From the IMG/VR virus record IMGVR_UViG_2778261058_000003: a stretch of DNA of 5,993 nt; one strand, given 5' to 3'. Origin of the DNA: a virus. Its lineage: Duplodnaviria; Heunggongvirae; Uroviricota; Caudoviricetes. Of this stretch, positions 1,613 through 2,390 are shown one piece after another. Within the stretch, counting starts at the first letter, position 1. The number at the start of each line of letters is the position of its first letter. A model generated the notes under the pieces. The model was not told where the DNA came from, made no database searches, and was given only the letters and a program-made list of their open reading frames with translations. The position numbers and the translations under genes are program-made.

Positions 1613-2137
1613 TTATTCAGGCGAGCGAATCTGTTCCGCACAATGCAACAATGCTTCTGTCACTTCCTTAAGCGTTACGGTATCGGCATCATCCAGTCCT
1701 GCAACTTTTGCGTGCCTGACAAACGCCGCGCGAAGCTCGTCAAACGCCACCGCCCGTACATCAGCCAGGAAAGCATCTGTAGCCGGGGTTTGCGGCATAC
1801 CTCCGTCTGTTGCGCAGATATACGCATCAGATAGTTCATCCTGCTCGCCATCAAACACGTAGCAACTCTGTACGATAAATTTATTCAGCCCCGCATTCTC
1901 CGCCGCCAGCGCCATGCGTTCTTTCTCAAGTCGGAAAATTTCAGTCACGTATTTGGCGTTTTCACCCCCCTTGATTAACTCGTTAATTCGTTTGCTTTTA
2001 ATTTCCAGTTCATCCAGCAGTTCCAACACAACCTGAGGTGTGGCTTTCATACGAAATGCCAGCAATTTTTGTGGTGTGGCTGCTATTTTTATTGCTTCTG
2101 CCGCCCCACGCAGTGCCTGATAGTCAATCTTGCTCAC
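1613..2137 (-). CDS. Ead/Ea22-like phage protein (putative)
   Basis: 174-aa ORF. N-terminus MSKIDYQALRGAAEA resembles the conserved N-terminal region I recall for Ea22-like prophage proteins. GTG start (complement 2135..2137) with AAGGAG 7 nt upstream; 14-nt overlap with the upstream ORF. Confidence 0.5.
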   Translation of the reverse strand: MSKIDYQALRGAAEAIKIAATPQKLLAFRMKATPQVVLELLDELEIKSKRINELIKGGENAKYVTEIFRLEKERMALAAENAGLNKFIVQSCYVFDGEQDELSDAYICATDGGMPQTPATDAFLADVRAVAFDELRAAFVRHAKVAGLDDADTVTLKEVTEALLHCAEQIRSPE

Positions 2138-2390
2138 TGGTTGTCTCCTTTTTCCATGTTTTCAGACTTTCACCACAGAACGGACAAAATGAAACCCGCA
2201 CTGGTGATTTAGAAAATTCACCGGAACGCAACATCACCAAATCAGGGCCGCGAGTTAAACTCTCATTCCAGATTTTGTATATCAGCAGACCTTTTCGCGT
2301 CGTGTATTCAGCATCATGCTCAAGGGATTTTGCCAGTGCCGTACACGGTTCTATCTTGTTGCCATAAACCAGGCATTTTGATTTACCCAC
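2124..2390 (-). CDS. Small Cys-rich protein (88 aa), possible zinc ribbon (C-x9-C ... CPFCG)
   Basis: GTG start at complement 2388..2390 preceded by AAGGAGG with a 6-nt spacer. Overlaps the methyltransferase stop by 8 nt and the Ea22-like start by 14 nt. Contains a C-terminal CPFCG motif. Confidence 0.5.
   Translation of the reverse strand: MGKSKCLVYGNKIEPCTALAKSLEHDAEYTTRKGLLIYKIWNESLTRGPDLVMLRSGEFSKSPVRVSFCPFCGESLKTWKKETTSEQD

Follow-up and report, generated by a model that had tools for sequence, protein, structure and literature searches.

A recurrent 16-nt Shine-Dalgarno/GTG junction on both sides of a small Cys-rich gene in a lambdoid prophage

Gene order of the locus and its two motif copies

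The analyzed stretch of DNA, 5,993 nt in length and referred to below as the window, derives from a Rac/Qin-like lambdoid prophage and comprises its immunity and early-right region. It contains the following genes:

5042-5689, plus strand: cI-like repressor
4718-4945, minus strand: Cro-like protein
4296-4721, minus strand: YdaT-like protein
3325-4272, minus strand: O-like replication protein
2868-3284, minus strand: DUF977 protein
2383-2871, minus strand: SAM-dependent DNA methyltransferase (phrog_954)
2124-2390, minus strand: 88-aa Cys-rich ORF (phrog_4030)
1613-2137, minus strand: Ead/Ea22-like ORF (Pfam PF13935)
beyond the Ead/Ea22-like ORF, minus strand: three more small ORFs

Two further features of the region were recorded. 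Near-palindromic repeats, AAATCTAAGTATTTTTAGATT / AAAACTAAATACTTTTAGATT, occur at window positions 4958-4978 and 5764-5784 (also 5010-5026, 5736-5752 and 5769-5785), with one site between the cro-like and cI-like genes and another just 3' of the cI-like gene. The repressor operators of both early promoters may be sought among these repeats. At the other end of the window, the sok antitoxin RNA gave a very weak partial match at positions 1-19 on the minus strand (18 bits, E = 0.9), and the closest relative carries a Hok toxin gene (L001, 900-1055) just past the position homologous to the window edge. It is thus possible that a hok/sok module is located just beyond the window edge.

The two motif copies, CACTGGTTGTCTCCTT at 2135-2150 and CACTGGTTGCCTCCTT at 2388-2403 on the plus strand, are spaced by 253 nt and differ by one mismatch. 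The original prediction of two 16-mers with a single difference at these positions was borne out by scanning the window with up to two mismatches, which returned no third match, and by 200 dinucleotide shuffles, which returned none at all. In a repeat search, the 16-mer pair extends to 21 nt with 86% identity. Read on the coding (minus) strand, each copy has the sequence AAGGAG(G/A)CAACCAGTG, that is, AAGGAG-N7-GTG:

2388..2403, minus strand: motif copy A, AAGGAGGCAACCAGTG, with the Shine-Dalgarno sequence AAGGAG(G), a 7-nt spacer and the GTG of the Cys-rich gene
2135..2150, minus strand: motif copy B, AAGGAGACAACCAGTG, with the Shine-Dalgarno sequence and the GTG of the Ead/Ea22-like gene

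The anatomy of the ORFs agrees with the prediction that each 16-mer provides a putative Shine-Dalgarno sequence and GTG start for the next gene. The GTG at 2390-2388 begins the 88-aa Cys-rich ORF and the GTG at 2137-2135 begins the Ead/Ea22-like ORF, and in both copies the Shine-Dalgarno sequence lies 7 nt before a start that overlaps the end of the upstream ORF. Both upstream ORFs cross the motif in the frame AAG GAG. Copy A also codes for the final residues of the methyltransferase (KEATS), which ends in ..IFMKEATSG and overlaps the Cys-rich ORF by 8 nt, and copy B also codes for KETTS in the tail of the Cys-rich protein, which ends in ..TWKKETTSEQD and overlaps the Ead/Ea22-like ORF by 14 nt. 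Among the ten gene starts of the operon (45 pairs), copies A and B are identical at 15 of 16 positions, whereas the runner-up pair reaches 11 of 16; a shared Shine-Dalgarno sequence and start codon are thus insufficient to explain their likeness. An Rfam search detected nothing near the motif, RNA folding around the two copies was no better than in shuffled sequences (z-scores of -0.1 and -0.2), and inverted repeats around them were weak, 10-16 nt only, and again no better than in shuffles.

Several other junctions of the region were noted alongside the 16-nt motif. The boundary of the DUF977 and methyltransferase genes coincides with a second recurrent junction:

2869..2885, minus strand: CAGGAGGTGATGCTGTG, at the DUF977 stop and methyltransferase start (also in L136, L137, L140, L172-176 and L202)

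In many other phages, DUF977 is joined straight to the Cys-rich gene by CAGGAGGTGATGCT running into GTG; this element behaves as another shared connector, tied to the 3' end of DUF977. Finally, the junctions that mark the orf131 stop and the DUF551 stop / orf131 start (window positions 141-159 and 533-551) form a similar pair, TCATC(G/A)(A/G)TTCACCTCCTGC on the plus strand (GCAGGAGGTGAA..GATGA on the coding strand). This pair probably represents the motif that had earlier been listed as the first recurring junction of this DNA.

Distribution of the junction among lambdoid phages

An exact-match scan of IMG/VR identified the motif in at least 120 stretches, all of them in lambdoid contexts except for about six chance matches. 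A genome collection was also scanned for the 16-mer; chance matches in its 596 Gb are estimated at about 550, and the matches listed were all chance ones in unrelated taxa, so that the scan was uninformative. For clustering of the flanks the 30 nt nearest to the motif were left out, and 126 instances among the matches listed were usable. These represent at least 17 upstream clusters and at least 25 downstream clusters, found in at least 53 combinations. With one representative per flank cluster, conservation reaches past the motif by a few bases only (..CGCA before it and AG.. after it), and the consensus junction is ..CAGCTTCGCA, AAGGAGGCAACCAGTG, AGC... The motif is a short conserved segment at a gene boundary, with flanks that are non-homologous across phages, and its location is in the early accessory regions of lambdoid phages, including P22-like phages and HK620.

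The downstream partners of the junction include many Ea22-like variants (VSKIDYQALRE..), the Cys-rich gene, a homologue of the window's methyltransferase and at least six further families; an ORF of 50 or more codons begins at the motif GTG in 119 of 130 instances among the matches listed. Homologues of the methyltransferase (VTGHAAILDMCCGSRM..) start at the motif GTG in IMG/VR stretches L031, L052, L079, L102 and L123, and thus the methyltransferase can occupy either side of the junction.

Upstream ORFs use two reading frames. Among the matches listed, the upstream ORF is in frame 2 in 92 of the 126 instances, ending in ..L/W/I-RKGGNQ with a 4-nt GTGA overlap, and in frame 0 in 28 instances, ending in ..KE(A/T)TS.. 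as in the window. The motif is therefore conserved at the DNA or RNA level and not at the peptide level. The original prediction had pointed to the similar C-termini encoded by the two copies (KEATSG in the methyltransferase, KETTSEQD in the Cys-rich protein). The similarity is present, but it is a by-product of the junction, since most upstream genes read the motif in another frame.

The canonical junction was found in 293 phage records, among them Stx1/Stx2 phages, HK544, mEp506, mEp213, the P22-like phage SE1 (EaE/EaA), CUS-3 and the P1-like phage D6. In HK620, it is located at hkaH/hkaG (Ead/Ea22-like; CAGCTTCGCAAAGGAGGCAGCCAGTGAGCAAGATTGAC). Clark, Inwood, Cloutier and Dhillon (2001, J Mol Biol 311:657) reportedly described boundary sequences at gene borders of phage HK620 as a focus of homologous exchange, and the presence of the motif at hkaH/hkaG makes it plausible that it is one of the sequences of Clark et al. 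2001. The literature searched, which covered papers other than Clark et al. 2001, does not print the motif sequence.

A later source credits Clark et al. 2001 and Susskind & Botstein 1978 with the idea of short conserved boundary sequences as mediators of mosaicism (PMC3029335). Compared with the lambdoid boundary or linker sequences, the motif is alike in being short, conserved, placed at gene borders of early accessory regions and flanked by non-homologous modules. It differs in location, as the motif of the window lies in the rightward operon, 3' of the replication genes, and not in the leftward ea/hka region. A second comparison is offered by stop/start overlaps; nin regions contain numerous ATGA overlaps (PMC8022706). 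Like the stop/start junctions of nin and ea regions (ATGA, GTGA), the motif places the Shine-Dalgarno sequence inside the upstream 3' end, and its canonical form is GTGA. Unlike these 4-nt overlaps, those in the window are 8 and 14 nt long, because the upstream ORFs are in another frame. In contrast to plain coupling junctions, the spacer is conserved too, which is not required by coupling alone.

Occupied sites, empty sites and homology breakpoints

The arrangement of the window (positions 2050-2700) was found in four E. coli genomes, including Br_190_kylling (L001, NZ_CP182387). In 19 genomes (e.g. L210), the methyltransferase and the Cys-rich gene precede another downstream gene, and the break falls at window position 2154. 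E. coli NY1601 (L209) possesses the gene order DUF977-methyltransferase-AAGGAGGCAGCCAGTG-Ea22; it is homologous to the window on either flank and has a single motif copy (..ATTATTTTTGTGAAGGAGGCAGCCAGTGAGCAAAATTGACTATCAGGCAC..). This genome aligns to window positions 2382-3141, 2096-2150 and 1518-1786, and its two inner alignments overlap by 22 nt, so that the single copy pairs with both copies of the window. The Stx2c phage LC727889 (L127) also has a single motif copy, with a 16-nt overlap of the alignments, and E. coli UTME-10 (L128) has the same empty-site pattern; across these three relatives, the overlaps are 16-22 nt. The segment absent from the empty-site relatives is as follows:

2151..2403, equally 2135-2387, minus strand: 253-bp unit composed of the Cys-rich core and one motif copy

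The unit can be written in either way because of the repeat.

The frequency of the two forms was assessed with a balanced 110-nt synthetic junction, made of 55 nt of the Ea22 start with the motif and 55 nt of the methyltransferase 3' end. This query was covered over at least 80% of its length in 85 E. coli genomes, of which four have the window arrangement (matched in two pieces) and about 81 have the direct join. A longer synthetic junction of 398 nt, used earlier, had given 548 records at 80% or more and was rejected as an overcount, as most of these records cover only the methyltransferase and the motif (query 77/84-398). The double-flanked arrangement of the window is rare, and the methyltransferase/Ea22 arrangement with one copy is common. 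Hence the arrangement that the original prediction had proposed to look for, a methyltransferase directly before the Ea22-like gene with a single motif, does exist (NY1601, LC727889, UTME-10 and the approximately 81 genomes). The contrary outcome it had named, in which no variants lack the Cys-rich gene and no breakpoint falls at the motif, was not observed.

Synteny breakpoints coincide with the motif, at window positions 2150/2151/2154 and 2402/2403. Those at 2150/2151 and 2402/2403 lie on its 5' side; its 3' side has breaks at 2382-2384 and 2133. Phage mEp460 shares only positions 2154-2403 with the window, i.e. the Cys-rich gene and copy A, and has other genes on either side; its homology (same downstream gene, different upstream gene) stops exactly at 2403. 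The homology of NY1601 (same upstream gene, different downstream gene) stops at 2382. The L210 breakpoint at 2154 adjoins an unrelated junction. Stx2a phages share only the Ea22 start and copy B, which form a widely distributed block:

2097-2151: first ~40 nt of the Ead/Ea22-like gene plus the motif, with ~85-98% identity to very many lambdoid prophages

Ea22 genes are known to be mosaic with a shared N-terminal segment (PMC10834534).

We sampled 60 rows at even steps from the 2363 E. coli records matching the balanced junction query, and most of them fall into two classes. Rows of the first class cover query positions 1-55 (the Ea22 start and the motif) and break at query 55, equivalent to window 2150; their upstream genes include DUF2737, DUF7446, Lar and other Ea22-like genes. 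Rows of the second class cover query positions 38-91/106 (the motif and the methyltransferase end) and continue into other downstream sequence. The motif (query 40-55) is common to both classes, as expected if exchanges are resolved within or at the shared junction.

In all contexts examined, the motif, intact or degenerate, is present at the 3' end of the methyltransferase gene. Behind the methyltransferase of Qin-like and O157:H7 prophages (L003, 2555-2685; L006, 2560-2690), we noted a decayed motif, AAAGAGGCATCCAGTGAGTAG, followed after about 25 nt by the sequence that in the window comes after the Ea22 stop. From the comparison with window positions 1560-1650 and 2384-2403, it looks as if the whole Ea22-like gene has been deleted there, leaving its first codons.

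The Cys-rich protein has four cysteines (Cys6, Cys16, Cys69 and Cys72), the last two of which form CPFC; this composition suggests a zinc site. The family was found only in prophages of Escherichia, Salmonella and Citrobacter and in P1-like phages. Searches of the protein against Pfam and NCBIfam gave no match, and PHROGs assigned it to phrog_4030, a family without an assigned function. Matches to PDB sequences, RpoM (E = 0.034) and a bacterial cereblon/CULT domain (E = 0.15), were non-significant and were discarded; the AlphaFold2 model built with 22 homologues has a pLDDT of 44.8, too low to base a fold search on. The conserved core of the protein stops at ..KTW (residue 79), and its tail is set by the junction, the variants being KKETTSEQD, EAEATSEQD, ENRNE, ESKK and ESQ.

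In an independent sample of 80 IMG/VR loci picked via the Cys-rich protein, with the motif called at up to two mismatches, 26 loci have the motif upstream of the gene and 14 have it downstream; at most two are flanked by it on both sides, and 37 have it on neither. The commonest upstream context is DUF977, joined directly via another junction, ..CAGGAGGTGGTGCG running into GTG, the type found in the window between DUF977 and the methyltransferase. The commonest downstream context is ..GAGAACAGAAATGAATGA followed by another gene. In its first ~128 nt the Cys-rich gene of the window is identical to that of the L210 type (methyltransferase-motif-Cys-X); from ..AAAACATGG onward it is identical to that of the L129 type (DUF977-Cys-motif-Ea22). 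A single crossover within the Cys-rich gene between two such parents would therefore suffice to produce the double-flanked arrangement. An insertion at the motif is thus not needed as the latest event behind the window arrangement.

The original prediction described the Cys-rich gene as a cassette inserted or exchangeable between the methyltransferase and the Ea22-like gene. Its exchangeable character is supported by the empty sites and the breakpoints, and the gene at 2124..2390 can be regarded on these alignments as the exchangeable module. However, the motif is generic and does not constitute the boundary of a Cys-rich cassette as such.

Proposed role of the junction and alternative explanations

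We consider it likely that the two 16-mers are copies of a widespread lambdoid accessory junction, which would combine translational coupling with a short homology for module exchange. AAGGAG(G), a strong Shine-Dalgarno sequence 7 nt before the GTG, would allow the downstream gene to be translated by coupling in an early polycistronic transcript; coupling is suggested by the overlap of the GTG start with the end of the preceding ORF. The occurrence of the same nucleotides, including the neutral spacer, between many unrelated gene pairs would make the junction a short island of homology, of ~16-26 bp for the motif alone and 55 bp when the conserved Ea22 start is counted in. Homologous recombination of phage or host could then swap flanking genes at the motif and keep both ORFs intact. 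The enzymes would probably be phage recombinases of the Rad52-like or RecT type, acting between infecting phages and resident prophages. The Cys-rich gene would be one among many modules shuffled across such junctions, and the window arrangement may have arisen by a crossover inside this gene between methyltransferase-motif-Cys-X and DUF977-Cys-motif-Ea22 parents. Its two direct repeats could delete the Cys-rich gene again and restore the common one-copy form.

De Paepe et al. 2014 (PMC3945230) trace mosaicism to relaxed homologous recombination by Rad52-like phage recombinases, which recombine short or diverged homologies. The proposed exchange resembles that system in its enzymology for short or diverged homologies and in the formation of mosaics between a phage and a resident prophage. 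It differs in extent: the flanking traces of De Paepe et al. were observed in 50-bp windows, whereas the homology shared here spans 16-26 bp at one of the junctions and 55 bp at the second. Red-beta needs at least 23-27 bp for efficient pairing, and the minimum for RecA is 31-34 bp (PMC3945230). With an exact core of 16 nt, below both values, the motif would on its own be an inefficient site of crossing-over; its canonical form measures ~22-26 bp once the conserved flanks are counted. Martinsohn et al. 2008 is also said to deal with relaxed homologous recombination and phage mosaicism.

Two further points weigh against crossing-over at the motif. Many joints of the Cys-rich gene are made through other junctions or lack any recognisable shared sequence, and the window arrangement could be explained without any crossover in the motif. 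It may also be that the motif is simply a successful translation-initiation region that travels with one of its neighbours, with joins made at random by illegitimate recombination and selection retaining those at gene borders (the Hendrix model). Gene-border breaks without the shared motif (L210 at 2154; 37 of the 80 Cys-rich loci), a 16-nt core below the published minimal pairing segments, and a methyltransferase whose 3' end comes with the motif, intact or decayed, in all contexts, as would be expected of a piece of the gene itself, would all be accounted for in this way. On the other hand, random joining does not easily explain why the identical 16 nt, neutral spacer included, are kept whichever side is swapped, in at least 53 flank combinations. 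Moreover, relatives that share one side lose homology at the far edge of the motif and not at its near edge, as crossing-over within the shared segment predicts. Although the comparative data would fit crossovers inside the motif and selected illegitimate joins at gene borders alike, we regard the Hendrix model as rather unlikely.

A stronger version of the exchange hypothesis would make the motif a dedicated signal, with the spacer kept for that purpose and in-frame cassettes shuffled in an integron-like manner on a universal 'AAGGAGGCAACCAGTGA' connector. In that case, single-strand-annealing recombinases of phages might prefer the motif for annealing or template switching, or an unrecognised enzyme might target it. 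We judge this quite improbable.

The two copies could also have arisen by local duplication, either as a target-site duplication or as the ends of a small mobile element or integron-like cassette with the Cys-rich gene. The direct repeats do bracket one small gene exactly and a one-copy empty site exists, but the window contains no transposase, integrase or terminal inverted repeats and no attC-like hairpin, the supposed repeat occurs singly at hundreds of junctions without the Cys-rich gene, and this gene usually lacks the motif on one or both sides. We therefore rejected a transposable element with target-site duplication, as hundreds of unrelated junctions already contain the 'duplicated' sequence, and also an integron cassette with attC, as there were no significant inverted repeats or fold around the copies and no integrase among the window ORFs; local duplication of any kind is very unlikely here. 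Like integron cassettes and morons, the locus has one small accessory gene present or absent between conserved neighbours, and unlike integron cassettes, it has no integrase or attC structure in the window. Morons, as defined by Juhala et al. 2000, are said to have their own promoter and terminator; the Cys-rich gene differs in that it overlaps both neighbouring ORFs, so that a promoter and terminator of its own are not evident from the ORF layout alone. That the likeness of the copies reflects selection on the upstream C-terminal peptides (KEATS / KETTS) is scarcely credible: both upstream ORFs of the window share a frame and similar ends, but 92 of 126 upstream ORFs among the matches listed are in the other frame (..RKGGNQ) and the tail of the Cys-rich protein past ..KTW varies with the junction.

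The widespread accessory junction that we favor is a clear example of phage mosaicism of the known, ordinary sort and no new kind of system. It bears on the old question of whether mosaic joints are located at short conserved linkers or at random, for which it provides a countable case: one 16-nt connector in at least 53 gene-pair combinations, with occupied and empty sites in E. coli genomes. Its defined sequence makes the linker hypothesis testable. For the annotation of lambdoid phages and prophages, C-terminal tails of small proteins may be regarded as by-products of the junction, and GTG starts predicted behind the motif as trustworthy.
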